Source of the DNA: an uncultured Mycoplasma sp.
GTDB taxonomy: Bacteria; Bacillota_I; Bacilli_A; RF39; UBA660
Assembly (NCBI GenBank): GCA_902493595.1
Contig: CABUPU010000002.1
Coordinates: 73,942-137,941, forward strand
Length of the DNA stretch: 64,000 nt
Direction of reading: 5' to 3'
Part shown: piece after piece, positions 2 through 45,910 of the stretch
How the letters are laid out: each line of letters begins with the position of its first letter
Position numbering within the stretch: position 1 is the stretch's first letter
Translations under genes and position numbers: made by a program
The notes under the pieces: generated by a model
Databases searched by the model: none
What the model saw: the letters and a program-made list of their open reading frames with translations, nothing else
What the model was told of the DNA's origin: nothing

Positions 2-2005
2 GGAGAATTTAATATAACTCCTGGTAATTGTGTAAAAACTGGAAAACAAAGAACTGTAATATGGGATGGTGAAATAAAAATATATGATGAGTATTCGTAT
101 GAAGATAGAAAGTTTATTTTTATAAACAATGATCCCATTGAGATAAAGCCTCTTGAATGGGAATACAATGATATAACAAATAGTCTAATATGTAAACAAA
201 TTATTTGTGATAGTCCTAAAAGTGATTCAATTCTATTTTCTTATATATATATGAATTACTATCTTTTTAGAGAATTATTAGAAAATTACGAAGTAGATGC
301 AACAAATTCTATAAAACTTGTTGATGGAAAAAATGGTACTGTTTTTGCTTATCCTTATGATAATTATATGGAAATAGATGAAAATGGTAATGCAGTATGT
401 CATGATGCAAAGTCATATAATTTGATTATTCCGAAAGGCGTGAAAAAAGTCAAACTAGCGGCCACTAATTCAATTGTTGATGGTGATAATTATGAGTTAA
501 ATTTAAATATCGATATCGATGGAGAGAATTTAAAAATTGGTACAGAGACATTTGATTTTGATTATTTAGATATTGATGCTTCAATTAATAGTTTAACCGT
601 TCGTAATATTACTAAAAGTGTAGAAGATTATTCTTTTAGCTGTAAAAATTTAATAAATAATATCACTATTCCATGTGACTTTACACTTTTCTCTAGACTA
701 TATTTAGGTGGTAATAATAAAACTTCTAAAAATTTGTTTAGGAGTACGAATTTAACTCTTACTTATAAAAATGAAAAAGAATTAATTAATTTCATAAGTG
801 ATGTAAATAGATTTTTAAGTCTTATTATTAAAAGTAACAATAAATGTGCATATACAAATCAATGTGCCGGCTTTGGCTATCATTCTACAAAGGTTGATTT
901 TACATATAAACATAATTTGTATATGTGTAAAGATGTTACTGAGTGTATGCCAAGTGAACGGCTACTAGTAAATAAAGAAATATTATCTATTTTAAAAGTT
1001 AGCTATTTTACTTTAAAAGGCCCGACTATTAGTGATGAATTAATATCAAAATTATTTCCTAATTTTGCAGTAAAAAAGGATTTTACTGATTTAGTTCAAA
1101 AAGAGGATAATACTAAACAAATAAAGGAGTCTAAAGATAAGGAAGAAAAGCCAAAACTTTCAAAAGAAGCAGAACACATACTAGATTTAGCTAGAGAAAT
1201 AATGAGTATTGATTATATAGGCCTTGATAAGGAAGATGTCAGAAATAAAGTAAATGTTATAATTGATGAATATAATACTTCTTATGTAGTCGAAGAGAAT
1301 GGGTTGTCATTATCTACGAATAACGGATTATATACTAATACGATTATTAAATTAGAAAACTTAAGAGATACTTTATATCATAACTTTGAAAAAAATCTTG
1401 AATTTTATGATATCTTAGATTTAATAGAAAGTATGATTAATAAATTAAATGGTGGAGAAGTTAAAATAGATTATGAAATTTTAAAGGACTTAGATACTTT
1501 GACTAAAATAATTAAGTATAGCAAGGATGAACAAACTAAAATAGAACTTATTACTTATTTAGAAAATGAAAAGCAAAATATTATTGATTATTTATGCGGT
1601 AAAAAAGAAATGGATTATAAAAATATAAATGATTTTATTAAAAAATTTAGATTATATTTGATGCCAATACTTACAAAAGTATCTGGTAATGTGTCAAAAA
1701 TTGATGTAATAAAACAAATTAAAAATTATGCTTTAAGTGAAATGAATGATAAAGTAGAAACAAATACAAATAGTTATATAAAAGTTATATTAAGCGAGAT
1801 AAATAAGCTTAAACAAGATATCATTAAGCTTGATGAAAATTATACTTTCGAAGAACTTGATTATTCAGATTTTGCTTCAGGAAAAGAAATAATTGATTAT
1901 TTAGATAATCTATATATAAAATATTATAAAGATTACACTATTTTGCTAAATAAAAAGCAGAAATATGAAGACTATCAAAGTAATATGATTCCTAAAATAT
2001 ATTAA
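2..2005 (+). CDS. paralog-family protein A (5' end outside window): BspA-type LRR-like region plus conserved C-terminal domain
   Basis: The frame of ORF 251..2005 stays open back to position 2. Upstream residues (..IEIKPLEWEYNDITNSLICKQIIC..) align with an internal segment of paralogs B/C/D (e.g. VTPLNWFYDEVSHSLVCKDIIAGF). The IPCDFTLFSRLYLGGN block and the C-terminal ~290 aa (LSKEAEHILDLAREIMSIDYIGLDKE...) are ~80% identical to B/C/D. Confidence 0.75.
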   Translation, partial: GEFNITPGNCVKTGKQRTVIWDGEIKIYDEYSYEDRKFIFINNDPIEIKPLEWEYNDITNSLICKQIICDSPKSDSILFSYIYMNYYLFRELLENYEVDATNSIKLVDGKNGTVFAYPYDNYMEIDENGNAVCHDAKSYNLIIPKGVKKVKLAATNSIVDGDNYELNLNIDIDGENLKIGTETFDFDYLDIDASINSLTVRNITKSVEDYSFSCKNLINNITIPCDFTLFSRLYLGGNNKTSKNLFRSTNLTLTYKNEKELINFISDVNRFLSLIIKSNNKCAYTNQCAGFGYHSTKVDFTYKHNLYMCKDVTECMPSERLLVNKEILSILKVSYFTLKGPTISDELISKLFPNFAVKKDFTDLVQKEDNTKQIKESKDKEEKPKLSKEAEHILDLAREIMSIDYIGLDKEDVRNKVNVIIDEYNTSYVVEENGLSLSTNNGLYTNTIIKLENLRDTLYHNFEKNLEFYDILDLIESMINKLNGGEVKIDYEILKDLDTLTKIIKYSKDEQTKIELITYLENEKQNIIDYLCGKKEMDYKNINDFIKKFRLYLMPILTKVSGNVSKIDVIKQIKNYALSEMNDKVETNTNSYIKVILSEINKLKQDIIKLDENYTFEELDYSDFASGKEIIDYLDNLYIKYYKDYTILLNKKQKYEDYQSNMIPKIY

Positions 2006-2008
2006 GTG

Positions 2009-2042
2009 GTTACTTGCAAAGTAACTGCTTTTTTTATATAAT
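2009..2042 (+). promoter_or_regulatory. terminator hairpin fused to a sigma70-like promoter (copy 1 of 3 of a repeated cassette)
   Basis: gttactt-gca-aagtaac stem-loop followed by T7. TTGCAA (inside the hairpin) - 17 nt - TATAAT, then AAAGGA RBS and the ATG at 2066. Confidence 0.55.
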
Positions 2043-2065
2043 TGTTATAGTAAAGGAAAATAGAT

Positions 2066-4474
2066 ATGAATAAAGTATACATGACTTTTTTAACAGAAAT
2101 GTCATCCTTATCAGAACACAAAAATAGGACGACAACTTTATATGAACCTTTTAATGTAAGCGAAAATGGAACAATGCAAACTGATTTAACAGAGTTTTTA
2201 TATGGTAAAAGAAATGATTATTTTGTATCATATGAACCAGTTAATGATATATGTAGTAAAAAGAAATTAAAAAATAGTTTAGGAATAAACGAGCGCCAGT
2301 TCAAAGGCGATAAAGAAGTATATTATGGTATTAGACCAGTTATTAAAACAACTGGCTCACTTGAAACTTTCATAAGAAAAAATAGTATTAAAGATTTAGG
2401 CAATGATGAATATATGCTTGGCTATTATCCACAAGAGGTTGTTACTGATAAAAATTTAATTCAAGAATTAAGAGTATTTTCTGATTATAATGAAAAAGAT
2501 TATTCTATTCCTAAATATTCTTTTATAGTGCCATGTAAGGGAGTTACATATAAAGGCGAAGATTATATTTATATAAGTGGAAAGAATACTACTTATGTAA
2601 AGGTACAACCGTTAATATGGAAGTATGATAAAGAAAGTAATAGCCTAATTTGTAAAAATATTATCGCGGGTTTTTTAACCAAAACCAAGCCAAAGGCGTT
2701 TTTACATGAGGGATTTGACTTTTTAAATGAATATTTGTTAAGGGATATTTTCAAAGGTAGTATTAAAAGTTTAACCGATAATGTGAAAGTTTGTAATGAA
2801 ATTATACATGATGACTTGCAACGATTTTATCTTCCTTATGAAGGAACTATTGAAATGGATGAGGAAGGAAAATTATATTCACATGATGAAAAAACATATG
2901 AAATTAATATAGGCCCAAAAGTAAAAGTTATATCTAGTAATGCTGTAGAAAATTTATTTGATAATTGCCATAAAGATGGAACATTTGGTGTTGACATTAA
3001 TATTAAAAGCGATGATCTTACTATTTTATCACAAGCATTTGATTTTTCTAAGTCAGGTATTGATGTTTTCATTAGTCATGTAAATATAGATGCAAAAAAA
3101 CTTTCTTTAGCAGAAAAGGTATTTTCAAATGCAAACATGCAAGTAGTTCCAAGATGTGATGAGATATCTATTCCGTGTGATATTAAACTATTTGCAAGAC
3201 TTTATTTGAGTGGAAATAAAGTTGCTAGGAATTTACTTGATAGATCCTTTTTAAAAATTAATTATACATCAGAAAAAGAACTTGTTTCATTTTTAAATGA
3301 TGTTCAAAGATTTGTTAATTTGTTTTCCAAATATGGAGAAAAGTATACTAAAAATGAATATAATCCAAAAAAACGAGGAAATAATAAAATTGATTTTGTT
3401 TATAAACATGATTTATATGAATTTTCCCATTTTGATCTTGTTACATATAATTGTAAAAGTGAAAATTTATTTTACAAACTTAACACTTATGAAATTGTGC
3501 TTTCTGGCCCAAAAATTAATGAAAAACGCGTGTCATCATTTTTCAAAGATTACGCAAGAGTTAAATTTGAGTTCACTGATAAAAAAGCTAGGGAAGAATC
3601 TGCTGATATTAGTAATGATGAATCTCTTACTAAAGAAGCAGAACACATACTAGATTTAGCTAGAGAAATAATGAGTATTGATTATATAGGCCTTGATAAG
3701 GAAAATGTTAAAACAAAAGTCAAAAATATTGTAGGTGAATATAATAATAGTTTGTCGAAGAAAACTGAAGGACTTTCATTAACTACGAATAATGGAGTTT
3801 ATACAAATGCAGTTATTAAGTTAGAAAATTTAAGGGATTCACTGTATTATAACTTTGAAAAAAACCTGGATTATTATGATATTTTAGACTTAATAAAAAA
3901 CATGATTAAAAAACTAAATGATGAAAAGGTTAATTTAGATTATGAAATTTTGAAAGATTTAGATACGCTTAATAAAATTCTTGATTATAATAATGATAAT
4001 AATACGCGAAAAGAACTTATTACTTATTTAGAAAATGAAAGTAAAAGAATAATTGACTATTTATCTGGAAAGGCAGAAATTGATTATAAAAATATAGATG
4101 AATTTGTTAAAAAGTTTAGATTATTTTTAGTACCAATACTTGCAAGAGTAAGTGGTGATGTATCAAAAATTGATGTGATGGAGCAAATAAAAGATTATGC
4201 TATTGAGAAAATGAACAATAAAACTTCGGAAAATACAAATAATTATATAAAGATTATCTTAAGTGAAATAGATATAACGAAGCATCTTATTTTAGAACTT
4301 GATAGTAATTATACATTCGAAGAACTAGATTATTCATCATTTAAAACAGGTAAAGAAATAATTGATTATTTAGATAAAAAATATATGGAGTACTACAAAA
4401 TATATTTAAATCTTATGGAAAATAAGGTTAATGAAGAAAATTATGAAAATAGTAAAGTTCATTTAAATATTTAA
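2066..4474 (+). CDS. paralog-family protein B (802 aa): LRR-like N-terminal/middle region plus conserved C-terminal domain
   Basis: Full ORF with an SD-like AAAGGAAAA upstream. It shares the MxxVYMTF N-terminus, IPCDxxLFxRLYLxGN and the C-terminal 290 aa with C and D. IPxxVxxIxxxAF-type spacing is suggestive of BspA-type LRR (LRR_5). Confidence 0.8.
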   Translation: MNKVYMTFLTEMSSLSEHKNRTTTLYEPFNVSENGTMQTDLTEFLYGKRNDYFVSYEPVNDICSKKKLKNSLGINERQFKGDKEVYYGIRPVIKTTGSLETFIRKNSIKDLGNDEYMLGYYPQEVVTDKNLIQELRVFSDYNEKDYSIPKYSFIVPCKGVTYKGEDYIYISGKNTTYVKVQPLIWKYDKESNSLICKNIIAGFLTKTKPKAFLHEGFDFLNEYLLRDIFKGSIKSLTDNVKVCNEIIHDDLQRFYLPYEGTIEMDEEGKLYSHDEKTYEINIGPKVKVISSNAVENLFDNCHKDGTFGVDINIKSDDLTILSQAFDFSKSGIDVFISHVNIDAKKLSLAEKVFSNANMQVVPRCDEISIPCDIKLFARLYLSGNKVARNLLDRSFLKINYTSEKELVSFLNDVQRFVNLFSKYGEKYTKNEYNPKKRGNNKIDFVYKHDLYEFSHFDLVTYNCKSENLFYKLNTYEIVLSGPKINEKRVSSFFKDYARVKFEFTDKKAREESADISNDESLTKEAEHILDLAREIMSIDYIGLDKENVKTKVKNIVGEYNNSLSKKTEGLSLTTNNGVYTNAVIKLENLRDSLYYNFEKNLDYYDILDLIKNMIKKLNDEKVNLDYEILKDLDTLNKILDYNNDNNTRKELITYLENESKRIIDYLSGKAEIDYKNIDEFVKKFRLFLVPILARVSGDVSKIDVMEQIKDYAIEKMNNKTSENTNNYIKIILSEIDITKHLILELDSNYTFEELDYSSFKTGKEIIDYLDKKYMEYYKIYLNLMENKVNEENYENSKVHLNI

Positions 4475-4477
4475 GTG

Positions 4478-4511
4478 GTTGCTTGCAAAGTAACTACTTT
4501 TTTTATATAAT
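4478..4511 (+). promoter_or_regulatory. terminator hairpin + TTGCAA-N17-TATAAT promoter cassette (copy 2)
   Basis: gttgctt-gca-aagtaac stem (one G.U pair), then a T7 run and TATAAT at 4506-4511. The cassette is near-identical to copies 1 and 3. Confidence 0.55.
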
Positions 4512-4534
4512 TGTTATAGTAAAGGGTGTAAGAT

Positions 4535-6850
4535 ATGGATAGAGTATATATGACATTTTTAAGCAAAATAGATGTGGAGACTCCTTCGATGTTAAATATT
4601 TTAAGAAAAAAGGGACTTATTGCAACTCCAACTGATTTTGTTAAGTATTTATATGGTAATTATTCATATTTAATTGCTAGTGAGCCTTTATATAAAAAAC
4701 AATTTTTAACTACTTTTGATAAATCGTATCCAGATGGTATTAAAAACTATTTTGGAATAAGACCACTTATTGATACAAATAATATGCAAAGTTTCATAGA
4801 AAAAAATGCTATCTCTATTAATGGTAATGAAATTAAATTAGGTAGTTATCCAACAAGTGTAATTAAAGATGAAGCATTAATTCAAAAATTAAGTAATGCA
4901 TATAAAGAAAATAAGTTTAATGATAAAAAGTATCATATACCAATAGGAGATGAAATAATAGAGTGTAATTCAATTACTTTAGATGGCGAAGATTATGTTT
5001 ATATTAAAGAAAATGGTTTATATGTTAAAGTAACGCCACTTAATTGGTTTTATGATGAAGTATCGCACAGTTTAGTTTGCAAAGACATTATTGCAGGTTT
5101 TTCGATAAAACTTTCTGATAGAGCTTTTGAAAAATATGGTTACAACTTTTTAAATGAATATTTATTAAGGGATGTACTTCAAGATAAAATAACTAGATTA
5201 ACAGAACCAGTAGATTTAGTTAACCAAAAGTATTTAGATGAACTGCAGCAAATTGATTTCCCCTTTAAATCTGACTTTGAGGTAAGTAATGAAGGAAAAC
5301 TTTATTTTCACGATGAGAGGGAATATAATATTAACATCGATGACGAAAGCGTGAGAAAAATCGGTGAGTTTGCTCTTGAAAATTTAGATGCTTATGTTCA
5401 TAGAACTAATCCTGTGTTTAATATTAATATAAAAGGTAAAAAGAAAATCGTTGGCCTTCAGGCTTTTGATTTTTCCTCTTTAGGTTTAAATGCTAAAGTT
5501 AAAAGCCTTAATATTGATGTAGATGAACTTCGTGTAGCGGATCCGTTTATATGTGTTAATAGTCAAATTGAAAATGTATCAATGCATTGCGACTTTACTC
5601 TTTTTACAAGACTTTATTTTTGTGGCAAATATTTGGCTCGTAACTATTTAAAAGGTTCTAATTTAACTATTAAATACAAAAATGAAAAAGAACTTATAAT
5701 CTTTTTTAAAGATGTGCAAAGGTTTATTAATTTGCTAGCTAAATCAGATGAGAGAAATAAAATTGACTTTACTTATAAACATTCATTTTATGAGTGCCAT
5801 TCTCTTGCAGAATATAACTACAATTTTAATGCACAAACATTATTTTCTAAAATTGGTTTAGGTAGCATTAAGTTAGTTGGCCCTAGTATAAACAAAGATA
5901 GAATTGCAAATATTTTAGGAGAAATCCCTAATATTAAATATATTTTTACCGATACTCTTGAAGAAGAGACTAAAGAAAAAGATAAAGAGGAAAAACCAAA
6001 ACTTTCAAAAGAAGCTGAACATATACTTGATCTTTCTAGAGAAATATTAAGTATTGAATATATAGGACTTGATAAGGATAGTGTTAAAACAAAAGTCAAA
6101 GATATTGTTGATGAATATAATAATGGTTTATCAAAGAAAAATGAGGGGCTTTCACTAACAACAAATAATGGAGTATACACAGATGCAGTTATTAAGTTAG
6201 AAAAGTTAAGAGATACACTATACCATAATTTTGAAAAAAATCTTAATTATTATGATATTTTAGATTTAATAGAAAACATGATTAAAATGCTAAATAATGA
6301 TGAAGTTAATATAGATTATGAAATTTTAAAAGACTTAGAAACTTTAAATACTATTTTAAAATACAGTAAAGATGAACAAACTAAAGAAGAAATTATTACT
6401 TATTTAGAAAATGAAAGACAATTCATTACTGATTATTTATCTGGTAAGGCAGAAATTGAATATAAAAATGTAGATGAATTTGTTAAAAAGTTTAGATTAT
6501 TTTTAGTACCAATACTTACAAAAGTATCTGGTGATGTTTCAAAAATAGATGTAATGAGGCAAATAAAAGATTATGCTTTTAATGAAATGAATGATAAAAC
6601 TACAGAAAATACAAATAATTACATAAAGCTAATATTAAGTGAAATAGATAAAATTAAGAAAAACATTTTAGAACTTGATAGTGAATATGCATTCGAAGAC
6701 TTTGATTATTCATCATTTAAAACAGGAAAAGAAATACTTGATTATTTAGATAAAAAATATATGGAATATTATAGAGTATATTTAGATCTTATGAAAAATA
6801 AAGCTAACGAAGAAAACTATGAGAATAGTAAAGTGCCTTTAAATTTCTAA
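4535..6850 (+). CDS. paralog-family protein C (771 aa)
   Basis: Full ORF with RBS AAAGGGTG. Its C-terminal domain is ~80% identical to B and D, and it shares the N-terminal motif MDRVYMTFL. Confidence 0.8.
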   Translation: MDRVYMTFLSKIDVETPSMLNILRKKGLIATPTDFVKYLYGNYSYLIASEPLYKKQFLTTFDKSYPDGIKNYFGIRPLIDTNNMQSFIEKNAISINGNEIKLGSYPTSVIKDEALIQKLSNAYKENKFNDKKYHIPIGDEIIECNSITLDGEDYVYIKENGLYVKVTPLNWFYDEVSHSLVCKDIIAGFSIKLSDRAFEKYGYNFLNEYLLRDVLQDKITRLTEPVDLVNQKYLDELQQIDFPFKSDFEVSNEGKLYFHDEREYNINIDDESVRKIGEFALENLDAYVHRTNPVFNINIKGKKKIVGLQAFDFSSLGLNAKVKSLNIDVDELRVADPFICVNSQIENVSMHCDFTLFTRLYFCGKYLARNYLKGSNLTIKYKNEKELIIFFKDVQRFINLLAKSDERNKIDFTYKHSFYECHSLAEYNYNFNAQTLFSKIGLGSIKLVGPSINKDRIANILGEIPNIKYIFTDTLEEETKEKDKEEKPKLSKEAEHILDLSREILSIEYIGLDKDSVKTKVKDIVDEYNNGLSKKNEGLSLTTNNGVYTDAVIKLEKLRDTLYHNFEKNLNYYDILDLIENMIKMLNNDEVNIDYEILKDLETLNTILKYSKDEQTKEEIITYLENERQFITDYLSGKAEIEYKNVDEFVKKFRLFLVPILTKVSGDVSKIDVMRQIKDYAFNEMNDKTTENTNNYIKLILSEIDKIKKNILELDSEYAFEDFDYSSFKTGKEILDYLDKKYMEYYRVYLDLMKNKANEENYENSKVPLNF

Positions 6851-6853
6851 GTG

Positions 6854-6887
6854 GTTACTTGCAAAGTAACTGCTTTTTTTATATAAT
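6854..6887 (+). promoter_or_regulatory. terminator hairpin + TTGCAA-N17-TATAAT promoter cassette (copy 3)
   Basis: gttactt/aagtaac stem, T7 run, TTGCAA at 6859-6864 and TATAAT at 6882-6887. Identical to copy 1. Confidence 0.55.
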
Positions 6888-6910
6888 TGTTATAGTAAAG
6901 GGTGTAAGCT

Positions 6911-9202
6911 ATGAATAGAATATATATGACATTTCCTACTGAAGATGAAGTTAAATTTTTTCCTTGGTTAAAAGATGCAAATTCTTCTGCATTAGTGAGA
7001 GAATTGTTAAAAGATTTATACTATGAATCAGAAACTTTAATTGTGAATAAAAATGATACTTTAAATATTAAGAATAAACGCTTAGGCATTATAGTAAGAC
7101 CGGTTATTAATTCAAATGAATCTCTTGTTCCTTTTATTGAAAAAAATAGAATTAACAAGGGAGGTTATGATAGCATTTTACTTGGAACTTTTCCATTAAA
7201 AGTAGCAAATAATATAGACAGGGGTACGCTTACAGAAACAAATAAAAAAAGAACCATTCCGATTAATTATTCTATGGTAACTTTAAATGAATATACGGAT
7301 GGCAATCGAAATTTTGTTATTGTGGGTGATGATATTATTGAAATATTGCCTATTGAATGGGAATATGATGAAAGCATAAATAAATTATTTTGCAAAACTA
7401 GTATTTTTAAATGTAATACTAGTAAGACAAATGATTTATTGATGGCTTATAATTATATGAATAATCAACTTTTTATGGAAATGCTAGATGATTATACCGT
7501 TATAAAGGATAATTCTGATATAAAATTAATTGATGACAAAGGATACATATCATTTGATTATCCATATAGTTCCTTTATAGAGTTTGATGATTTAGGTAAT
7601 ATAATATTTCATGGTAATGAATATAATCTAACTATACCAAATACTGTAAGAAAAATAGATGAATATGCCTTTGATAAAATTCTTGGAAATGATAGTTCAA
7701 AATTATCTTTAAATATAGATATTGATGGTGATGATTTATCAATACCACCATATGCTTTTAATTTAAATACTATTCGTGCTAATGTACATATTGTGTATTT
7801 AAATGTTCATAACGAGTTAAGTGCAATCGGACAAGCCTCATTTAATACTAATTTTCCTATTGATAATATTACAATTTTGTGCGATTTTGCTCTTTTCTCT
7901 AGACTTTATTTAAGTGGTGATAATTTTGCAAAAAATCTTTTTGAAAATTCAAAATTTACTTTAACTTATACAAGCGAAAATGAATTAGTGAAATTTGTAA
8001 GTGATATAAATAGATTTTTTGAATTAATATATAAAAGTTTGCAAAAAGAAAAAAACAAACGATTTTATTCCAATGATGTAACCTCTATTGATTTTAGTTA
8101 CAAATTTAATACATATAAATATATAGATGCTTCAACTTGTATACCAAATATTGAACTTCTAAAAAACAAAGAAATTTTATCTATTTTAAAAGTAAGCTCT
8201 TTTACTTTAAAAGGTCCGACTATTAGTGATGAATTAATATCAAAATTATTTCCTAATTTTTCAGTAAAAAAGGAATTTACTGATTTAGTTCAAAAAGAAA
8301 AAACTGCAACTAAACAAATTGATGAACCAAAAAATAAAGAAGAAAAGGCAAAACTTTCTAAAGAAGTAGAGCACATACTGGATCTTGCTAGAGAAATAAT
8401 AAGCATCGAATACATAGGTCTTGATAAAGAAACAGTTCGTAAAAAAGTTGATGAAATTGTTATTGAATATAATAATGGATTATCTAAAAAAAGTGGGGGA
8501 TTATCATTAACAACAAATAATGGAGTGTATACAAATACTATTATTAAATTGGAAAACCTAAGAGATGCATTATATCATAATTTTGAAAAAAATCTTGGGT
8601 TTTATGATATTCTAGATTTAATTTCTAGTATGATTAAAAAACTAAATGATGAAGAGGTTAAAATAGATTATGAAATCTTAAAGGACTTAGATACTCTGAC
8701 TAAAATACTTAAGTATAGTAAAGATGAACAAACTAAAAATGAACTTATTTCCTATTTAGAAAATGAAAGCAAAAGAATAGTTGATTATTTATCTGGTAAG
8801 ATAGAAATTGATTATAAAAATATAGATGAATTTGTGAAAAAATTTAGATTATTCTTAGTACCAATACTTACAAGAGTATCTGGTAATGTATCAAAAGTAG
8901 ATGTAATGGAGCAAATAAAGGATTATGCTTTAGATGCAATGAATGATAAAACTACAGAAAATACAAATAATTACATAAAGCTAATATTAAGTGAAATAGA
9001 TAAAATTAAGAAAAACATTTTAGAACTTGATAGTGAATATGCATTCGAAGACTTTGATTATTCATCATTTAAAACAGGAAAAGAAATACTTGATTATTTA
9101 GATAAAAAATATATGGAATATTATAGAGTATATTTAGATCTTGTGGAAAATAAAGTTAATGAGGAAAACTATGAGAATAGTAAAGTACCTTTAATTTATT
9201 AA
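6911..9202 (+). CDS. paralog-family protein D (763 aa)
   Basis: Full ORF. The N-terminus MNRIYMTFP, the IPNTVRKIDEYAF LRR-like units and the conserved C-terminal domain are present. A 205-nt tract is identical to gene C. Confidence 0.8.
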   Translation: MNRIYMTFPTEDEVKFFPWLKDANSSALVRELLKDLYYESETLIVNKNDTLNIKNKRLGIIVRPVINSNESLVPFIEKNRINKGGYDSILLGTFPLKVANNIDRGTLTETNKKRTIPINYSMVTLNEYTDGNRNFVIVGDDIIEILPIEWEYDESINKLFCKTSIFKCNTSKTNDLLMAYNYMNNQLFMEMLDDYTVIKDNSDIKLIDDKGYISFDYPYSSFIEFDDLGNIIFHGNEYNLTIPNTVRKIDEYAFDKILGNDSSKLSLNIDIDGDDLSIPPYAFNLNTIRANVHIVYLNVHNELSAIGQASFNTNFPIDNITILCDFALFSRLYLSGDNFAKNLFENSKFTLTYTSENELVKFVSDINRFFELIYKSLQKEKNKRFYSNDVTSIDFSYKFNTYKYIDASTCIPNIELLKNKEILSILKVSSFTLKGPTISDELISKLFPNFSVKKEFTDLVQKEKTATKQIDEPKNKEEKAKLSKEVEHILDLAREIISIEYIGLDKETVRKKVDEIVIEYNNGLSKKSGGLSLTTNNGVYTNTIIKLENLRDALYHNFEKNLGFYDILDLISSMIKKLNDEEVKIDYEILKDLDTLTKILKYSKDEQTKNELISYLENESKRIVDYLSGKIEIDYKNIDEFVKKFRLFLVPILTRVSGNVSKVDVMEQIKDYALDAMNDKTTENTNNYIKLILSEIDKIKKNILELDSEYAFEDFDYSSFKTGKEILDYLDKKYMEYYRVYLDLVENKVNEENYENSKVPLIY

Positions 9203-14631: not shown

Positions 14632-14889
14632 ATGAGACAAACAAAAGGAATAGTTACTGAGGTATTTATGCCAAATGAATATAGAGAAGAGTTACTTCTT
14701 GATACATTAGATAATAATGTAATCGGCTTTAAAGTAAATACTAGTGATGGAGAAAGAGTAATAATCGAAGAAATTGATGAATTTAATAGTCAAATAATGA
14801 AGGATGACTTAGTTTTGATTACTGAGCAAACTATTGATGGTCATTATTTTATAGATATAGAACTTACTGAGGATGAAAATGAAATATGA
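14632..14889 (+). CDS. small acidic hypothetical protein (85 aa) immediately upstream of and overlapping the helicase gene
   Basis: ORF with AGGTGA 5 nt upstream of the ATG at 14632. It overlaps the helicase start by 17 nt, which suggests coupling. Confidence 0.45.
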   Translation: MRQTKGIVTEVFMPNEYREELLLDTLDNNVIGFKVNTSDGERVIIEEIDEFNSQIMKDDLVLITEQTIDGHYFIDIELTEDENEI

Positions 14890-17800
14890 TGTAGTAGGAT
14901 TATATGAACATAATGAAATAAGTTATGATAAAGTAAAAGAAGCTTTTAAAACTAGCGATGTTGTGGGAATAGTTCAAGCAACAGGTACTGGTAAAAGTTA
15001 TAATGCTTTACAGATTTGTTATGATAATCAGGGCAAAAAAATAATATATGTTGTGCCATCTTTAGGAATTATTGAACATATTAAATCAATAATCGAAGAA
15101 AATCCTAACTTATCATTAGATAAAGATTTTAAAAATGTTGAATTTAGAACCTATCAAAGTTTTTTAAACCTTTCAAAAAAAGAAATGGAAAGCATACCTT
15201 GTGATTTAATAATAGATGATGAATTTCATCATCTTGGAGCACCTGTATGGGGACAAAGAGTTAAAACATTTATAGAACTTCATCCAGGTGTTAAAGTATT
15301 TGGAATGACTGCTTATACTGTAAGAGATCGTGGAACAATATATGAAAGAGATATGGCTAATCCTGATACTGATGAATTGTTTTCAAATAAAATAGTTAGT
15401 AAATATGATTTATGTGATGCAATGGTTGATAAGGTATTACCAAAACCAATATATAAATGTGCTTATATAGGGTTAGAAAAAATGTTAAATGAATTCGAAG
15501 CCAAAGTAAAAGAAAGTAGCAAAGAAATAAATGAACTACTTGAAAGTGCTAGAAAGAAAGTCCACGAAGCACCAAGTATTAAAGATTTAGTAATAAAATC
15601 AATTAAGAAAAATGGTAAATATATTTATTTTTGTCCGCCATATTCAGAAAAAGGTGAAAATGATATTGAAAGTATAAAAAAGGAAGCCTTAGAATGGTTT
15701 AAATCTATTCTTCCCGAAGAAGATATTGTATTTTATACCTCGACAAGTGATATGGGAACATTTGGAAAGCAAAATAGAAAAGCTTTTTACAATGATTTAG
15801 ATTTAGAGGGTAAAGATGCCAAAGGAAAACTTCGTGTAATGTTTGCTATAAATCAATATAATGAAGGAATACATGCTCCCAATGTAGATGGAGTAATAAT
15901 GGGAAGAACAACTACATCAGATATAGTATTTTTTGAGCAGTTAGGAAGAGCATTGTCCGTAAAAGGAAATACTTTCGAAGAATATAATCATTTAATAAAT
16001 TTAAGTTATGAACAGTTACTCCAATTGTGTAAAGATAAAGATATTCCAGTAAAAGAAGATGCTACTAAAGAAGATATGATAGAAAGTTTACTTGCACCAG
16101 TGGTAATCGATTTAGTGGGAAACTATGAATATATAAAAGAACTTGAAAATAATTTACAAAATAGAGTTAAGGAAATTCAAAGTAAAGGCCCAGGTAATGA
16201 AAGAGTTATTAAATTAAAAAATCCTACATTTGATATTGAAGTTGAAAATAAAAACTTATATGAAATGTTAGAAAATTTAAGAGAAAAATTAACACTTTCT
16301 TGGAATGATATGTATGAATATGCAAAAAAATATTACGAACATTATGGAAATCTCGATGTACAGTATAAATTTAAAACCAATGATGGCTTCACTAAAAATG
16401 ATGATGGTAAAATAAATCTTGGGGTGTGGATTACTAATCAAAGACATAAACTTACTCCAGAAAGTGAAAAAGGAAAATTATTATTGCAAATAGGAATGAG
16501 TTTTGAAAATAAAAAAAGTACTTTTTCTTGGGAAGAAATGTATGAGTATGCAAAAAAATATTATGAGCATTATAAAAATCTTGAAGTTCCTCATAGGTTC
16601 AAAACCGATGATGGTTTTTCGTCAAATGAATATGGAAAAATAAATCTCGGAGTTTGGATTCAAAATCAAAGATATAAAATTTCTGTAGATAGTGAAAAAG
16701 GAAAGTTACTTTCTCAAATAGGAATGCGTTTTGAACGGAAAAAAATCTCTTGGGAAGAAATGTATGAATATGCAAAAAAATATTATGAACATTATAAAGA
16801 TCTTGAGGTGCCTATCAAATTTAAAACAAACGATGGTTTTACTAGAGATGACAATGGCAAAATAAACTTAGGAGCTTGGCTTCAAAATCAGAAATATATT
16901 ATTTCCCCGGATAGTGAAAGAGAAAAGTTACTAATGCAAATAGGAATGCACTTTGAGCGAAAAAATATTTCTTGGGAAGAAATGTATGAATATGCAAAGA
17001 AATATTATGAACATTATAAAGATCTTGAAGTACCTGCTAAATTTAAAACAACTAATGGATTTACTAAAGATGACAATGGTAAAATTAATTTAGGAATATG
17101 GATCTTGTCTCAAAGGCATAATATTTCTCCGGACAGTGAAAAAGGAAAGTTATTATCACAAATAGGAATGAGTTTTGAAAATAAAAAAAGTACTCTTTCC
17201 TGGGAAGAAATGTATGAATATGCAAAGAAATATTATGAACATTATGGAAACCTTGAGGTATCTGCCAAATTTAAAACGAATGATGGTTTTACTAGAGATG
17301 ACAATGGTAATATTAATTTAGGTGCTTGGATTTCATATCAAAGAAAAAGAGTTTCTCCAGAAAGTGAAAAGGGAAAACTACTATCACAAATAGGAATGCG
17401 TTTTGAAACAAAGAAAAATGTTTCTTGGGAAGAAATGTATGAGTATGCAAAGAAATATTATGAACATTATGCAAACCTTGAGGTACCTAACAAATTCAAA
17501 ACCAATGATGGTTATACCTTTGATGAGAAAGGTGAAATAAATCTTGGAAATTGGATTATTGCACAAAGGCATAATATTTCTCCGGACAGTGAAAAAGGCA
17601 AACTACTTTCACAAATAGGACTGCGTTTTGCAAATTTAAGAAGTCTAATTTCATGGGAAGAAATGTATGAGCAAGCTAAAAAATATCAAAAATATTATGG
17701 CAATCTTGAAGTACCTAAAAAATTTAGAACTGATGATATTTATACTTATGATAAAAATGGTAAAATTAAATTGGGATTATGGGTAGATAGAATGCGTAAA

Positions 17801-18634
17801 ACAATTGATCTCCAAAGTGAAAAAGGCAAGCTACTTACGCAAATTGGTATGAGATTTACTGAAGAAGTTCCGGATGAAGTTTGGTTAAATATGTATTCTT
17901 ATGCAAAAAGGTATTATGATACATGGGGATATTTAGCAAATATGAACTGCGAATTTAAAACCAATGATGGCGTTAATTACGATAAGTATGGCAAAATTAA
18001 TTTGGGATTATGGGTAGATGAACAAAAAAATCTTATTGCTCCGGAAAGTAAACGAGGTAGAATGCTTGCCCAACTTGGTATGGATTTTCCTAAAAAGAAA
18101 ATGACCTGGTTTACAATGTATGAACTTGCAAAAAAATATTATGAATACTACGATAATCTTAGAATTCCTATAACTTTTAAAACTAACGATGGAATTAATT
18201 ATGATAAAAATGGTAAATTTGACTTAGGACTGTGGTTATTTCGCCAATTTGAAAACAATGACCCGACTAGTGAACAAGGTATTTTACTTTCAAATATTGG
18301 AATGATATGGAACAATGATATAAGACTTTTACAACTTCATATAGCGTGTGATGCTCACAAAATAGACTTTGAAAAGTATAAAGATGAGCTTTTCAAAATT
18401 CCAATTTCCTTGTTATGTGCCAAAATGGATTTTTTATACTTTAATTCTATTCCAATTATAGATAGTGAAGGCAATCTTAATGAAATATTTAATTTAAATA
18501 GTACTGAAATTTATGAAAAATATAATATTACAATTAAACAGTTACTTTCTAAATATAAGTCTACTTTAAACTTTTGCAGTTATATTCTTAAAAAACGATT
18601 AAGTGAGAGTGAAAAAAATAAAAAAGTTTTATAA
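14873..18634 (+). CDS. DEAH/ResIII-type SF2 helicase with nine C-terminal helicase-associated (HA, PF03457-like) domains
   Basis: Walker A-like ATGTGKS and motif II DDEFHH (DEAHH-like) at the N-terminus. Then nine ~73-aa units of pattern SWEEMYEYAKKYYEHYGNLEVPxKFKTNDGFTxDDNGKINLGxWIxNQR...EKGKLLSQIGMRF. Confidence 0.75.
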   Translation: MKMKYDVVGLYEHNEISYDKVKEAFKTSDVVGIVQATGTGKSYNALQICYDNQGKKIIYVVPSLGIIEHIKSIIEENPNLSLDKDFKNVEFRTYQSFLNLSKKEMESIPCDLIIDDEFHHLGAPVWGQRVKTFIELHPGVKVFGMTAYTVRDRGTIYERDMANPDTDELFSNKIVSKYDLCDAMVDKVLPKPIYKCAYIGLEKMLNEFEAKVKESSKEINELLESARKKVHEAPSIKDLVIKSIKKNGKYIYFCPPYSEKGENDIESIKKEALEWFKSILPEEDIVFYTSTSDMGTFGKQNRKAFYNDLDLEGKDAKGKLRVMFAINQYNEGIHAPNVDGVIMGRTTTSDIVFFEQLGRALSVKGNTFEEYNHLINLSYEQLLQLCKDKDIPVKEDATKEDMIESLLAPVVIDLVGNYEYIKELENNLQNRVKEIQSKGPGNERVIKLKNPTFDIEVENKNLYEMLENLREKLTLSWNDMYEYAKKYYEHYGNLDVQYKFKTNDGFTKNDDGKINLGVWITNQRHKLTPESEKGKLLLQIGMSFENKKSTFSWEEMYEYAKKYYEHYKNLEVPHRFKTDDGFSSNEYGKINLGVWIQNQRYKISVDSEKGKLLSQIGMRFERKKISWEEMYEYAKKYYEHYKDLEVPIKFKTNDGFTRDDNGKINLGAWLQNQKYIISPDSEREKLLMQIGMHFERKNISWEEMYEYAKKYYEHYKDLEVPAKFKTTNGFTKDDNGKINLGIWILSQRHNISPDSEKGKLLSQIGMSFENKKSTLSWEEMYEYAKKYYEHYGNLEVSAKFKTNDGFTRDDNGNINLGAWISYQRKRVSPESEKGKLLSQIGMRFETKKNVSWEEMYEYAKKYYEHYANLEVPNKFKTNDGYTFDEKGEINLGNWIIAQRHNISPDSEKGKLLSQIGLRFANLRSLISWEEMYEQAKKYQKYYGNLEVPKKFRTDDIYTYDKNGKIKLGLWVDRMRKTIDLQSEKGKLLTQIGMRFTEEVPDEVWLNMYSYAKRYYDTWGYLANMNCEFKTNDGVNYDKYGKINLGLWVDEQKNLIAPESKRGRMLAQLGMDFPKKKMTWFTMYELAKKYYEYYDNLRIPITFKTNDGINYDKNGKFDLGLWLFRQFENNDPTSEQGILLSNIGMIWNNDIRLLQLHIACDAHKIDFEKYKDELFKIPISLLCAKMDFLYFNSIPIIDSEGNLNEIFNLNSTEIYEKYNITIKQLLSKYKSTLNFCSYILKKRLSESEKNKKVL
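16293..18310 (+). repeat. nine tandem ~220-bp coding repeats (HA-domain units); the central six are near-identical at the DNA level
   Basis: Units start near 16297, 16527, 16749, 16968, 17199, 17420, 17652, 17880 and 18105. The block tcttgggaagaaatgtatga(a/g)tatgcaaa(a/g)aaatattatgaacattat recurs. Confidence 0.8.
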
Positions 18635-38155: not shown

Positions 38156-38311
38156 TATATTAAATTTTATTAAATAAATCTAAATTCTTTACAACTATAT
38201 TAGTTTAGTTAAATTATTTATAATCTCAGTATTAACCTTGTTCGTATTTTTCCAAAATATATAGATTTAAGAAAAACTATCTCACTATTTATAAGGTATT
38301 GTAGAGTACAT

Positions 38312-38539
38312 ATGATAAAAAATAATAAAGTAAAAATAATAGGTGTAATTTCAAGTATAATACTGTTGGTAATAGTAATAACTGCATCATTTGCATATTT
38401 GGGTTTATTTAATATAAATTTAACTGGAACTGCTAATCTTAGCACAACTTGTACTTATGACATTGTTCAGGAATATGATAGTTCATTTTATATTTATGGA
38501 AGAACAGGAACAATTCTAGATCCATATCATATTGGTTAA
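38312..38539 (+). CDS. possible small membrane-anchored protein (75 aa)
   Basis: N-terminal TM helix, no clear RBS. I kept it because it has intergenic space of its own. Confidence 0.2.
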   Translation: MIKNNKVKIIGVISSIILLVIVITASFAYLGLFNINLTGTANLSTTCTYDIVQEYDSSFYIYGRTGTILDPYHIG

Positions 38540-38614
38540 GTTCAAAGTCTATAATCAAAGTTATAGACTTTTTCTATGTTTTTTAGTAAAATAAATATAG
38601 AAAGAAAATGTGTT

Positions 38615-42954: not shown

Positions 42955-43162
42955 TATAACTGTAACCTTAAATATAAATATATTCGATTTGAATGGAAAT
43001 ACAACCATAAAACATAGTTCGTAAAATATTACAATTATAAATAAACTAACTATACTTATTAATAATATTTTTTTAATTAAATCGTCCATATAATATTATA
43101 TACATTATAATGTAAATTGACATTTGTAAGTTTATTTGCTAAACTTTATAGTAGTGATAGGT

Positions 43163-44038
43163 ATGAATAATAATAAGGGTTTTATATTTCTTGAAACAAT
43201 CATTATTACTGTTGTTTTAACAACAACTCTTATTTTTTTGTATTCAAATTTTAGTAAGAATATTAATGATGAAAAACGAAGACTTTATTATGATGATATA
43301 GCATATGTATATAAAACTATTTTTATTCGTAATGCTGTAAAAAGTACGATTAATAATGCTGTTTTTGAAGAAGCAATTAATGATGATAAAGCAGATAATC
43401 AAAATAGTTTAAAAAATAATTTTGTGTTCTTATTTAACTCTGAATCGAAGTTTTGTACTGAATATTTTATTGATACTACGGATGGAAATAAAATTAAATG
43501 TGAAGCTAAAAATTATCGTTCACTATACTTTGACAATAAATATATAAGTGATTTAAATAATATTTATAAATTTAAAACTCTTGTATATTTAAAAAACGAT
43601 GATATTTCTAAAATTAAGAAATGCATTAATAGTGGTATAGATAGTTTCGAGGATACTGATGCTGATAAAAAAAGATGCCAAAATTTTTTAGAATTTACAA
43701 ATGAGTATTCAGAAATAAACTTGAATGAATATATGCTTACAATTAACTCAGTTGATACAAATGCAGTTAATCCTAGTTCACAGCAGAGTATAATGATTGC
43801 AATTTTTAATGAAAGAAAGAACGGAAATGCTATTAGTTTTAATGATATATCTTCGGATGAAGATACCATACCTAATGATAGCTATAAAAGTTGTTTAAAT
43901 TATTATATAAATAAAAATTTTAATTGTCCAGATTGTAATCTTAAAACTAAAATTGAAAATTATTATGATCAAGATATTATAAGGTATAATATGGCTTGTG
44001 AAAAAGCTTATTATGTTTCGTGGGTGTATTATGAATAA
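43163..44038 (+). CDS. type IV pilin-like (pseudopilin) protein, 291 aa, class III signal peptide
   Basis: MNNNKG|FIFLETIIITVVL has G-1/F+1/E+5 followed by a hydrophobic helix. Cys-rich C-terminal region. Confidence 0.65.
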   Translation: MNNNKGFIFLETIIITVVLTTTLIFLYSNFSKNINDEKRRLYYDDIAYVYKTIFIRNAVKSTINNAVFEEAINDDKADNQNSLKNNFVFLFNSESKFCTEYFIDTTDGNKIKCEAKNYRSLYFDNKYISDLNNIYKFKTLVYLKNDDISKIKKCINSGIDSFEDTDADKKRCQNFLEFTNEYSEINLNEYMLTINSVDTNAVNPSSQQSIMIAIFNERKNGNAISFNDISSDEDTIPNDSYKSCLNYYINKNFNCPDCNLKTKIENYYDQDIIRYNMACEKAYYVSWVYYE

Positions 44039-45311
44039 AAAAGGATTTATATCAACAGCATCATTATTTTCATTTTTTCTAGTTTTTTGCACTTTATTAA
44101 TACTTATTATGACTACATATACTAATAATAGAGTTAACTTTAAAATGATAAAAAATGATTTAAAAAAATATTTAATTACTGATAGCAATACTTTCCTTAA
44201 AAGTCGTTATAAAACTTTACCCGAGGAAATTATTGAAGGTGAGGGACCAGATGGTCCTCAAAGTCCGGATACACCAAGTAATCCAGATGTTCCAACTGAT
44301 CCTGATAATCCTCCGAGTCCAGATCCAGTAATTCCTTCATATAAAGCGTATGAAAAAGTTTTATTAGACAATAGTGCAGGAGCTTCAACAGTTAGTAATG
44401 CTATAAGCTTTATTAAAGAAAGAGGTACACCAAACTTTAATAGAACTGCCACAACTAATGAAAGAATGTTCTTTGCAGAGGATAACTTAGGTTCATCATA
44501 TTATTTCAGAGGGGCTGTAGACAATAACTGGGTAAAATTTGGTAAAGATGATAGTAGCAAAGATATGTACTGGCGAATAATAAGAATCAATGGTGATAAT
44601 TCAATAAGAATGATATATTCAGGAACTAATGCTCCTACTGCTGCGACAAGTGTTATCATGACTGGAGATACTACTGCAGTTGGACATAGTGTTTATAATA
44701 CAGTAACTAGTGGTGCAGAATACACTGGTTATATGTATCAAAAAAATTATCAAAGAAATAATGTAAATAATAGTACAATCAAAAATAAAGTTGATGAGTG
44801 GTATGCTAAGACTACATTAGCTAGTACTGATTCTATAAAAGTTGTAGATTCCATCTTTTGCAATGATCGAGACACTGTCACAAATTGGGCTAGTAAACCA
44901 GGTGCAAATTTGATGTTTAATGGGCGTGACAGGAATGTTAATAGCAAAAATCCTTCACTTAAATGTAATAATGATGCTGATAAGTTCACTGTATCAAAAG
45001 ATAAAAGCAATAAAGCTCTTAGATATCCTGTTGGATTAATTACGATTGATGAAGTTGCAATGGCAGGTGGATGTTTCTTGAATACTAATAAAAATTATTA
45101 TTTATATACTGGAATATTTTATTATACAATGACTCCAAATTTTATACGAAGAGGGGGAGCCGCATTTGTGTTCCTTGTTGATCAAAAAGGAGATTATCCA
45201 AACTATGCAATTGGTTCTGACATCTACATTAGACCAGTTATTAATTTAAATGGTGATGTTAAATTTAAGGGGTCAGGAACATATGATGATATTTATGAGG
45301 TAGTAGAATGA
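44031..45311 (+). CDS. large minor-pilin-like protein (426 aa) with prepilin-type leader lacking E+5 and a Pro-rich linker
   Basis: MNKKG|FISTASLFSFFLVFCTLLILIM, then the linker GPDGPQSPDTPSNPDVPTDPDNPPSPDPVIP. Its ATG is embedded in the upstream stop region (8-nt overlap). Confidence 0.55.
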   Translation: MNKKGFISTASLFSFFLVFCTLLILIMTTYTNNRVNFKMIKNDLKKYLITDSNTFLKSRYKTLPEEIIEGEGPDGPQSPDTPSNPDVPTDPDNPPSPDPVIPSYKAYEKVLLDNSAGASTVSNAISFIKERGTPNFNRTATTNERMFFAEDNLGSSYYFRGAVDNNWVKFGKDDSSKDMYWRIIRINGDNSIRMIYSGTNAPTAATSVIMTGDTTAVGHSVYNTVTSGAEYTGYMYQKNYQRNNVNNSTIKNKVDEWYAKTTLASTDSIKVVDSIFCNDRDTVTNWASKPGANLMFNGRDRNVNSKNPSLKCNNDADKFTVSKDKSNKALRYPVGLITIDEVAMAGGCFLNTNKNYYLYTGIFYYTMTPNFIRRGGAAFVFLVDQKGDYPNYAIGSDIYIRPVINLNGDVKFKGSGTYDDIYEVVE

Positions 45312-45910
45312 AATTAAATAATAAAGGTGTAACAATAGTGGAGCTTTTAGTTAGTATGGCACTTTTATCAGTAATACTTATGTTTTTATACAACTTACTT
45401 TCTAATGTTACTTTTGAAAAAAATAGTGATTTTATTGCATCAGCTAATCAATCAAATAGAATTGATATTATAATGACAATTGAAGATGATTTATTAAAGG
45501 ACAATAATGTAACCATAGTCTCAAAATCTGATAATGGTAATGAACTTATATTAAAAGGATCATTAAAAAAATATAAAATCACTTTAGTGGATAATAAAAG
45601 TCTTGCTTACGATGTTAGTGAACTATCTCGAGATAATTGGCAAATCCAAAATACTTGGAAAATTAAAAATGGTACTTTGGGAAAAATTGATTGTGGAAAT
45701 ACTAATATGAGTTCTTTAGAAAGTAATGTTAACGCAAGTGAATGTAAAAGCGGGTCTGCAAATAGTAATCTTACTTGTCGTGATGTAATAAACAGCTATG
45801 AATCAATTGTAATAACTGAATGTAAAATACCGGTTTATACAACTAATGTTAATAATACTAAAGATAATAATAATACTTTAGATGATATAATATTCTCATT
45901 TATACAATAA
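45308..45910 (+). CDS. type IV pilin-like protein (200 aa) with canonical prepilin leader
   Basis: MKLNNKG|VTIVELLVSMALLSVIL has G-1 and E+5. ATGA overlap with the upstream gene. RBS GAGGTAG. Confidence 0.7.
   Translation: MKLNNKGVTIVELLVSMALLSVILMFLYNLLSNVTFEKNSDFIASANQSNRIDIIMTIEDDLLKDNNVTIVSKSDNGNELILKGSLKKYKITLVDNKSLAYDVSELSRDNWQIQNTWKIKNGTLGKIDCGNTNMSSLESNVNASECKSGSANSNLTCRDVINSYESIVITECKIPVYTTNVNNTKDNNNTLDDIIFSFIQ

Follow-up and report, generated by a model that had tools for sequence, protein, structure and literature searches.

A putative minor type IV pilin operon with a lectin-like head domain in uncultured gut Bacilli

Results

Three consecutive genes, g1, g2 and g3, in a 64,000-nucleotide stretch of DNA from an uncultured Mycoplasma sp. 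(contig CABUPU010000002.1; the whole stretch is called the window in the following) most likely constitute one short operon which encodes minor type IV pilin-like subunits. Our preferred reading, to which we give a probability of roughly 0.6, is that the three proteins are a minor-pilin set which primes and caps a type 4 filament and that the g2 protein is its tip adhesin subunit. An earlier note on this DNA had pointed to three adjacent genes with prepilin-like N-termini, and the coordinates, lengths and N-termini which it listed agree exactly with the sequence (Table 1). It had also claimed that the start codons overlap the preceding stops. Indeed, g1 and g2 share 8 nt (ATGAATAA), the ATG of g2 being located within the last codons of g1, and g2 and g3 share 4 nt (ATGA). 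Both overlaps are also present in the orthologous loci. Because the trio is bordered by a 208-bp spacer upstream and by a convergent gene downstream, we regard it as a self-contained unit. In the public gene calls g2 starts at GTG 43998 (437 aa) and not at ATG 44031; the additional codons are the conserved 3′ end of g1 re-read in a different frame. Since in the relative L028, in which g2 leads the set, the protein begins directly at MNKKGF, the ATG at 44031 is the better start.

All three proteins have a short, mostly basic leader ending in Gly, which is followed by a hydrophobic segment of about 21 residues, and this arrangement is kept in all orthologues. When every possible start in the window was scanned with a regular expression for a prepilin-like N-terminus, only three open reading frames were retrieved, namely g1, g2 and g3. 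As no other open reading frame of the window has such an N-terminus, a chance origin of the leaders is not credible.

That the genes are pilin-like, as the earlier note proposed, is best borne out for g3. This protein scores above the cutoffs of Pfam N_methyl (PF07963; 27.6 bits, cutoff 21.2 bits) and of TIGR02532 (22.5 bits, cutoff 16.3 bits). Its orthologues reach 22.8–31 bits with N_methyl, and one of them is named 'prepilin-type N-terminal cleavage/methylation domain-containing protein' by NCBI. Within the g3 family (26 sequences) the residues K6, G7 and E12 are invariant. For g1 the proposal is upheld by the invariant Gly-1, Phe+1 and Glu+5 and by matches to N_methyl below the threshold: N_methyl is the top match of the distant g1 orthologues, with 15.3–18.6 bits just under the cutoff, and the motif K-G/F-x-F-x-E (the slash marks the predicted cleavage site) occurs without exception in 24 full-length sequences. 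The g2 protein, for its part, is not a complete pilin. Every g2 orthologue, the distant ones included, has the leader KG/[FV]IS and lacks the glutamate at position 5 of the mature protein (Glu5; proteins without it are called E5-less here). Gly-1 is invariant in 10 GTDB species and in the distant relatives L021, L027 and L028, and so is Glu5 of g1 and g3. The conservation of a charged residue inside a membrane helix argues for a pilin role. Profile searches against the PDB gave nothing beyond the leader.

The N-terminal helix is also the best conserved region of each protein. Over residues 11–35 the mean pairwise identity amounts to 0.92 for g1 and to 0.80 for both g2 and g3; the C-terminal parts have values of 0.47 (g1), 0.35 (g2) and 0.44 (g3). 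In proteins with a cleaved Sec signal peptide, conservation is normally lowest in that peptide, and the α1 helix of pilins, which forms the filament core, is normally their most conserved part. The observed pattern therefore fits the α1 helix of a pilin in the filament core and not a discarded signal peptide. From the sequences we further read that no small-x-small or A-x-A-type signal peptidase I site follows the hydrophobic stretch.

The g2 protein deserves a closer look. In its AlphaFold2 model, calculated with an alignment of 61 sequences, a hydrophobic helix (residues 9–32) is followed by short helices up to about residue 59, by a disordered linker and by the head. The Pro/Asp-rich linker announced in the earlier note is present, with 13 Pro and 6 Asp among the 39 residues from aa 64 to 102. 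Its pLDDT (predicted local distance difference test) values of <50–56 indicate disorder, and it is the least conserved segment of g2 (mean identity 0.11 over aa 61–100). The big C-terminal domain, likewise foreseen, is predicted as a well-defined head with a pLDDT of ~98 (aa 100–426).

The family to which the head belongs is very large. Among 1.84 billion representatives, searched exhaustively with HMMER, 4683 proteins match at E ≤ 1e-3 (clusters at 50% identity), 753 of them at E ≤ 1e-30. The domain is found in 1–16 copies per protein and in proteins of up to 4905 aa; the relatives include giant surface proteins with several copies and a few structural proteins of phages. A minority of the members begin with MNKKGF, and in two of them (P0159 and P0178) the leader is the canonical GFTL[VI]E and passes N_methyl. 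P0159 is composed of N_methyl, a pilin module of ~165 aa, a Pro-rich linker and the head, and adjoins a plain pilin paralogue in another lineage. This full fusion of pilin and head means that the head serves as pilin cargo elsewhere. In L017 the pilin which carries the head is complete and is a paralogue of the plain pilin encoded beside it. The head has therefore been attached to pilins more than once.

For g2 itself no Pfam match is obtained even at E ≤ 1. Two homologues of the head, P0159 (26.6) and P0134 (38.9), pass the threshold of DUF6273 (PF19789; 23.5) over the C-terminal half of the head. When the g2 model was compared by Foldseek with the predicted viral structures of BFVD, the matches (E = 3e-5 to 2e-2) included DUF6273 proteins as well as a 'receptor binding protein' and a tail-collar fibre protein; the matches to DUF6273 and receptor-binding proteins have E values of 3e-5 to 3e-3 and probabilities of 0.93–1.0 at TM (template modelling) scores of only 0.3–0.6. 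The g2 head shares the DUF6273 fold as a remote relative. With ~320 aa the head is about twice as long as the 172 profile positions of DUF6273 and has an extra β-rich N-terminal subdomain. Neither by sequence nor by Foldseek did we find a significant match of the head to solved structures, and among the insignificant Foldseek matches C-type lectin domains are the only recurring theme. DUF6273 is described as a C-type-lectin-like, receptor-binding module (PMC10743442), is found in phage receptor-binding proteins ('tentaclins', targets of diversity-generating retroelements) and also constitutes the N-terminal domain of ThomasA, a secreted gut IgA protease (PMC12402451). Taken together, family and predicted fold of the g2 head point to a binding module rather than to an enzyme. 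The interpretation of the earlier note is supported in part: conservation and the fold link to DUF6273 speak for g2 as an E5-less, minor-pilin-like subunit whose head is of the adhesin type; the pilin β-sheet which would complete it is missing from the model.

Since DUF6273 is a target of diversity-generating retroelements and since many '90% clusters' were present, we considered a hypervariable or retroelement-targeted head within species. This was rejected, as 115 orthologues are 93–100% identical and have no high-entropy columns. Unlike the phage DUF6273 targets, g2 moreover has no such retroelement and no reverse transcriptase nearby. In cultured phage genomes tblastn found no match to the head, and among 2.9 million viral contigs only 5 have a gene for a relative. 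Some members of the head family (P0226, P0259, P0262 and L023 5668–7731), one of them on a 75-kb viral contig, begin with MK(P)MKL(N/D)IQMFAPD, and a few members on viral contigs with MK(L/P)MKLNIQMFA. This N-terminus is typical of Prp-processed phage structural proteins. Together with the viral contig it leads us to conclude that the head domain is common to cellular surface proteins and phages. SipW-type signal peptides (TIGR04088), suggested by an 'S[FY]AYF' motif in some family members, had no NCBIfam match and were dropped.

The trio is conserved as a unit. A scan with the g1 profile of one genome per GTDB species identified 10 species, all of them uncultured, and in 10 of 10 g1-g2-g3 are present with order, place and overlaps unchanged. 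Both g1 and g3 are restricted to the lineage (33 and 141 clusters). Between species the g2 anchor is ~70% identical and the head 26–35%. Within the head N166, S248, W257, E341, the pair D279-R280 and R401-P402 are invariant. Through g2 we also found more distant AT-rich relatives (L021 and L027–L029). The trio is always close to ylbL-mutS, also in these relatives. In L021 (GCA_964404455.1) the synteny is unchanged and g1 is shorter (215 aa). In L028 and L029 the order is g2-g1-g3, and the genes are placed between Lon and YlbL-MutS without spore-like neighbours. In L027 the g2-g3 pair is tandemly duplicated (559–4145); the two g2 copies are near-identical in their first ~45 and last ~30 residues and have diverged in the head core, so that they look like alternative head cassettes. 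In UBA6448 the head of g2 is deleted (L009 5144–5362): ~70 aa with leader, helix and stem are left, and g1 and g3 are intact. Because the head is deleted in UBA6448, duplicated and diverged in L027 and far more divergent than the anchor, we regard it as an exchangeable module.

The earlier note had called the operon an orphan because it saw no assembly genes in the window. We searched the open reading frames of the window with Pfam and NCBIfam and found no ATPase, platform protein or prepilin peptidase of a type IV pilus or type II secretion system. Likewise, none of the GspE-family motifs (Walker A, Walker B and His box) was found when all six frames of the window and of 29 fetched loci were scanned, 518 kb of DNA that falls short of whole genomes. 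The window is thus free of these genes, and the designation orphan holds at every locus examined. We also found no machinery in the contexts of the pilin-leader homologues of five other lineages.

A promoter-like element in the 208-bp spacer precedes g1 and is kept in 8 of the 10 aligned species. Judged by its sequence, it is σA-like with no recognisable sporulation-sigma pattern and could serve as the promoter of the trio. The genes upstream of the trio code for a SpoVB-like flippase (minus strand), RelA, Dtd, a LysM protein with a weak SpoVID match and a YsxE-like protein; rpoB and rpoC are also found upstream. Downstream follow a YlbJ-like gene (minus strand), a YlbL/SepM-like Lon-PDZ protease, MutS and a PdaB-like deacetylase. 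For several genes between 36860 and 51848 sporulation proteins (SpoVB, SpoVID, YsxE, YlbJ and PdaB) are the best NCBIfam matches, all below the cutoff. These spore-like neighbours contrast with the public label 'Mycoplasma sp.' of the lineage. The host lineage may sporulate or may keep remnants of sporulation genes.

Table 1. Positions of the trio, of the g2 modules and of two adjacent features in the window
Feature	Position	Strand	Remarks
g1, pilin-like protein, 291 aa	43163–44038	+	Leader MNNNKG, mature FIFLE...; five conserved Cys
g2, 426 aa	44031–45311	+	N-terminus MNKKG/FISTA, no Glu at +5
g2 N-terminal module	44031–44219	+	Leader MNKKG, hydrophobic helix aa 6–32 without Glu5, short helical stem aa 37–59
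g2 Pro/Asp-rich linker, aa 64–102	44220–44336	+	Read from the sequence
g2 head domain, aa ~103–426	44337–45311	+	Large unnamed extracellular family, remotely DUF6273/C-type-lectin-like
g3, prepilin-type protein, 200 aa	45308–45910	+	Leader MKLNNKG, mature VTIVE...
Promoter-like element	43117–43145	+	TTGACA, 17 nt, extended -10 TGnTAAACT; ends 18 nt before the ATG of g1; consensus scan
Small hydrophobic open reading frame, 58 aa	42913–43089	-	Probably two transmembrane helices, PFK[ST]N motif; divergent from g1

Discussion

We suggest that the trio acts in the following way. Each protein would insert into the membrane via its class III signal sequence, and a prepilin peptidase encoded elsewhere would cut after the conserved Gly. 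Then, the three N-terminal helices could pack as a small complex which primes and caps a type IV filament, either a pilus or a Com-type pseudopilus. The g2 protein would be the terminal subunit and hold its C-type-lectin-like head on the flexible Pro/Asp-rich stalk. We place g2 at the end because it lacks the Glu5 which would neutralise a subunit above, has no pilin globular domain and bears a bulky head. The g1 and g3 proteins, which both possess Glu5, might connect g2 to the filament body. Finally, the head would bind its ligand, which is probably a glycan or some other structure on a surface. The gene organisation, the leader motifs with their conservation, the prepilin match of g3, the family, fold class and modular behaviour of the head and the synteny are observed; cleavage by a peptidase, entry into a filament, the place at the tip and ligand binding are inferred.

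Comparable sets of minor pilins have been described. In Streptococcus sanguinis, which is a monoderm as well, PilA-PilB-PilC are encoded in an operon of three minor pilins; PilA is E5-less, and the two others are unusually large modular adhesins with a lectin (PilC) or a vWA module (PilB) (PMC9934059, PMC8179133). This complex is modelled at the pilus tip and is proposed to start assembly and to present the adhesins there (PMC9934059). There is, however, no sequence homology to the trio. The E5-less PilA is small and the modular subunits keep Glu5 and a short pilin moiety, whereas in the trio it is the E5-less g2 which is modular and has no pilin globular moiety. The heads of the S. sanguinis proteins have ConA-like or vWA folds, whereas the g2 head is predicted to be DUF6273/C-type-lectin-like. 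Moreover, the S. sanguinis genes are part of a pil locus with the machinery, and no machinery is near the trio.

The minor (pseudo)pilins GspH/I/J/K are also co-transcribed, and the largest subunit is E5-less and expected to be the cap (GspK/PilX); in the HIJK complex this bulky cap without Glu5 is GspK (PMC9934059). Here, four genes are involved instead of three, and we detect no similarity to the trio with hidden Markov models (HMMs) or by fold (NCBIfam GspJ, E = 0.26; Foldseek with g1, nothing). The bulk of GspK results from a domain inserted into the pilin fold, whereas g2 carries its head on a stalk. The overlapping g1-g2-g3 genes nevertheless share what marks both HIJK and PilABC, namely a co-transcribed set of three to four minor pilins with one E5-less member. 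ComGD-ComGG of the monoderm Com pilus are, as proposed for the trio, minor pilins of a Bacilli type 4 filament. Weak matches of all three N-termini to ComGE link the two; the trio differs in protein sizes and domain content and is not part of a comG operon. With the ComG equivalog HMMs the trio stays below the cutoffs (ComGE 12.6–18.9 bits versus 49, ComGF 11.2 versus 80). In our reading the trio does not represent a categorically new system but a modular set of minor pilins at a conserved locus which is unlinked to machinery. It is unusual in that its lineage-specific subunits are without homologues in characterised systems, in that the proposed cap consists of a helix and a stalk and in that the head family is outside Pfam.

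Several observations weigh against a minor-pilin set with g2 at the tip. In the window g1 has no Pfam match and g2 no prepilin match, and neither reaches the HMM thresholds. The g1 model (helices 5–43 and 46–62, then an α/β region) is only moderately confident, with a pLDDT of 72 and a predicted TM score (pTM) of 0.71, and Foldseek finds no fold match to pilins in the PDB. As the model matches nothing in the PDB, the pilin case for g1 is made by the motif and its conservation and not by the fold. The g2 model has no pilin β-sheet or globular domain, and NCBIfam detects in none of the three proteins homology to GspH/I/J/K or ComGD-ComGG beyond the N-terminal motif. Furthermore, no ATPase, platform protein, peptidase or major pilin is found in the window, within ±10 kb around ~15 related trio loci or in the 518 kb. 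Finally, pilin leaders are the exception in the head family, most members of which have an ordinary membrane anchor or signal sequence at the N-terminus.

The last two observations suit another explanation, namely a membrane-tethered surface lectin complex without a filament, in which the pilin-like helices, cleaved or not, are anchors and the Pro-rich stalk spans the cell wall. We think that this is rather unlikely. The absence of machinery from all fetched DNA speaks for it, as do the composition of g2, which is nothing but helix, linker and head, the plain transmembrane or signal anchors of most head-family members and the fact that other members with a pilin leader are likewise scattered among housekeeping genes. 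Yet anchors can hardly explain why Gly-1 and the intrahelical Glu of g1 and g3 are invariant over deep divergence, why g3 passes the prepilin models and why the helix is more strongly conserved than the ectodomains. The same conservation makes it very improbable that ordinary Sec signal peptides or anchors resemble prepilin leaders by chance. The low HMM scores of g1 and g2 would allow it, and AT-rich genomes favour Lys, Asn, Ile and Phe; however, the motif stands on three adjacent genes and on no other open reading frame of the window, it is invariant across species, the hydrophobic stretch of ~21 residues is not followed by an A-x-A-type site and the N-terminus is the most conserved region.

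Two further proposals start from the host and from the neighbourhood. If the trio were the minor pilins of a Com pseudopilus (equivalents of ComGD-GG) for DNA uptake, it would be encoded apart from comGA-GC. The known comG minor pilins are small and located in the comG operon, which counts against this proposal, and the 320-aa lectin-like head, akin to phage receptor-binding domains, suggests adhesion over DNA binding. On the other hand, the host apparently belongs to a monoderm Bacilli lineage, a minor-pilin tip complex is known for Com pili (PMC12153270), and ComGE is the weak best NCBIfam match of all three N-termini. Those matches (E = 0.001–0.1, far below the cutoff) are limited to the generic leader and helix, however, and we consider DNA uptake improbable. 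A sporulation-associated surface or appendage module is what the position between spoVID/ysxE-like and ylbJ-like genes might suggest, given the sub-cutoff matches of the neighbours to sporulation proteins and the spore-like synteny kept in L021. This hardly agrees with the conserved σA-like element upstream of g1 nor with L028 and L029, where the trio is found next to Lon, YlbL and MutS without any spore-like gene; we would give this proposal next to no weight.

We therefore retain the minor-pilin set with g2 as the tip adhesin subunit. More tentatively, the trio could be a filament tip module specific for this clade, with a bare E5-less α1 helix as cap, an exchangeable lectin-like head, a Pro-rich stalk and a fixed locus at ylbL-mutS unlinked to the machinery. 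In a more radical version of this idea the filament machinery would have been lost and the pilin leaders repurposed as membrane anchors of a surface lectin complex.

The carriers of the trio are abundant, uncultured gut Bacilli with small genomes. For the attachment of these organisms to the host or to other cells, the conserved trio with its lectin-like head offers a concrete candidate adhesin. If our reading is true, the idea of modular pilins developed for S. sanguinis would come to include a new head fold and an extreme architecture in which only the helix of the pilin is left. Furthermore, g2 offers an entry to a very large extracellular domain family without its own Pfam model, which surface proteins and pilin-like proteins share with a few structural proteins of phages.

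Additional observations

A 166-kb scaffold from a human-gut metagenome (ENA ERZ28566509) contains the window, whose GC content is ~25%. Orthologues of g2 are present on hundreds of human-gut metagenome contigs. The species carrying g1 are labelled as 'Bacilli bacterium' metagenome-assembled genomes, 'Bacillales bacterium UBA6448' and 'Mycoplasma sp. CAG:472'. A literature search on the host lineage (CAG-472, UBA6448 and RFN20/RF39 with competence) returned no papers.

The small open reading frame divergent from g1 (Table 1) overlaps the 3′ end of the YsxE-like gene. Its amino-acid sequence is conserved in 9 of the 11 related loci that were checked. Pfam gives no match, and in L021 a 72-aa gene is called at its position. 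An Rfam scan of the window yielded one tRNA and nothing else.

Relatives of the host possess a further gene with a domain of the head family. This gene of 815–837 aa (L003/L005 2140–4599, L010 2870–5383, L006 6785–9232) encodes a protein with a transmembrane helix, the motif 'SISYAFF' and, at the C-terminus, a relative of the g2 head, and is located between the SpoVB-like and the Post_transc_reg/RelA genes or elsewhere. At 38156–38575 the window has no such paralogue; only a 75-aa open reading frame (38312–38539) with a similar-looking N-terminus is found there. Being present in relatives and absent from the window, the head-family paralogue represents an insertion/deletion polymorphism. That the 75-aa open reading frame is a remnant of the 819-aa paralogue with the g2 domain was not supported by BLAST.

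In one related locus (L030; GCA_021628585.1, JAJXSO010000002.1 442781–463302, on a 1.12-Mb contig) g1, MutS and other genes are in fragments. Frameshift errors in a long-read assembly are the apparent cause, and gene absences in GCA_021628585.1 therefore have to be treated with care.

At 251–9202 the window contains four tandem paralogous genes (584, 802, 771 and 763 aa) with no Pfam match and no signal peptide. Their C-terminal ~330 aa are highly similar, and an N-terminal domain with a 'GIRPVI' motif is common to three of them. A relationship of the g2 head to these proteins via this motif was rejected, since BLAST gave nothing and hhalign a probability of 6%. Another gene, at 14873–18634, codes for a protein of 1253 aa with a ResIII helicase N-terminus and seven HA repeats (PF03457, 'helicase associated'), which is unusual for a small bacterial genome.

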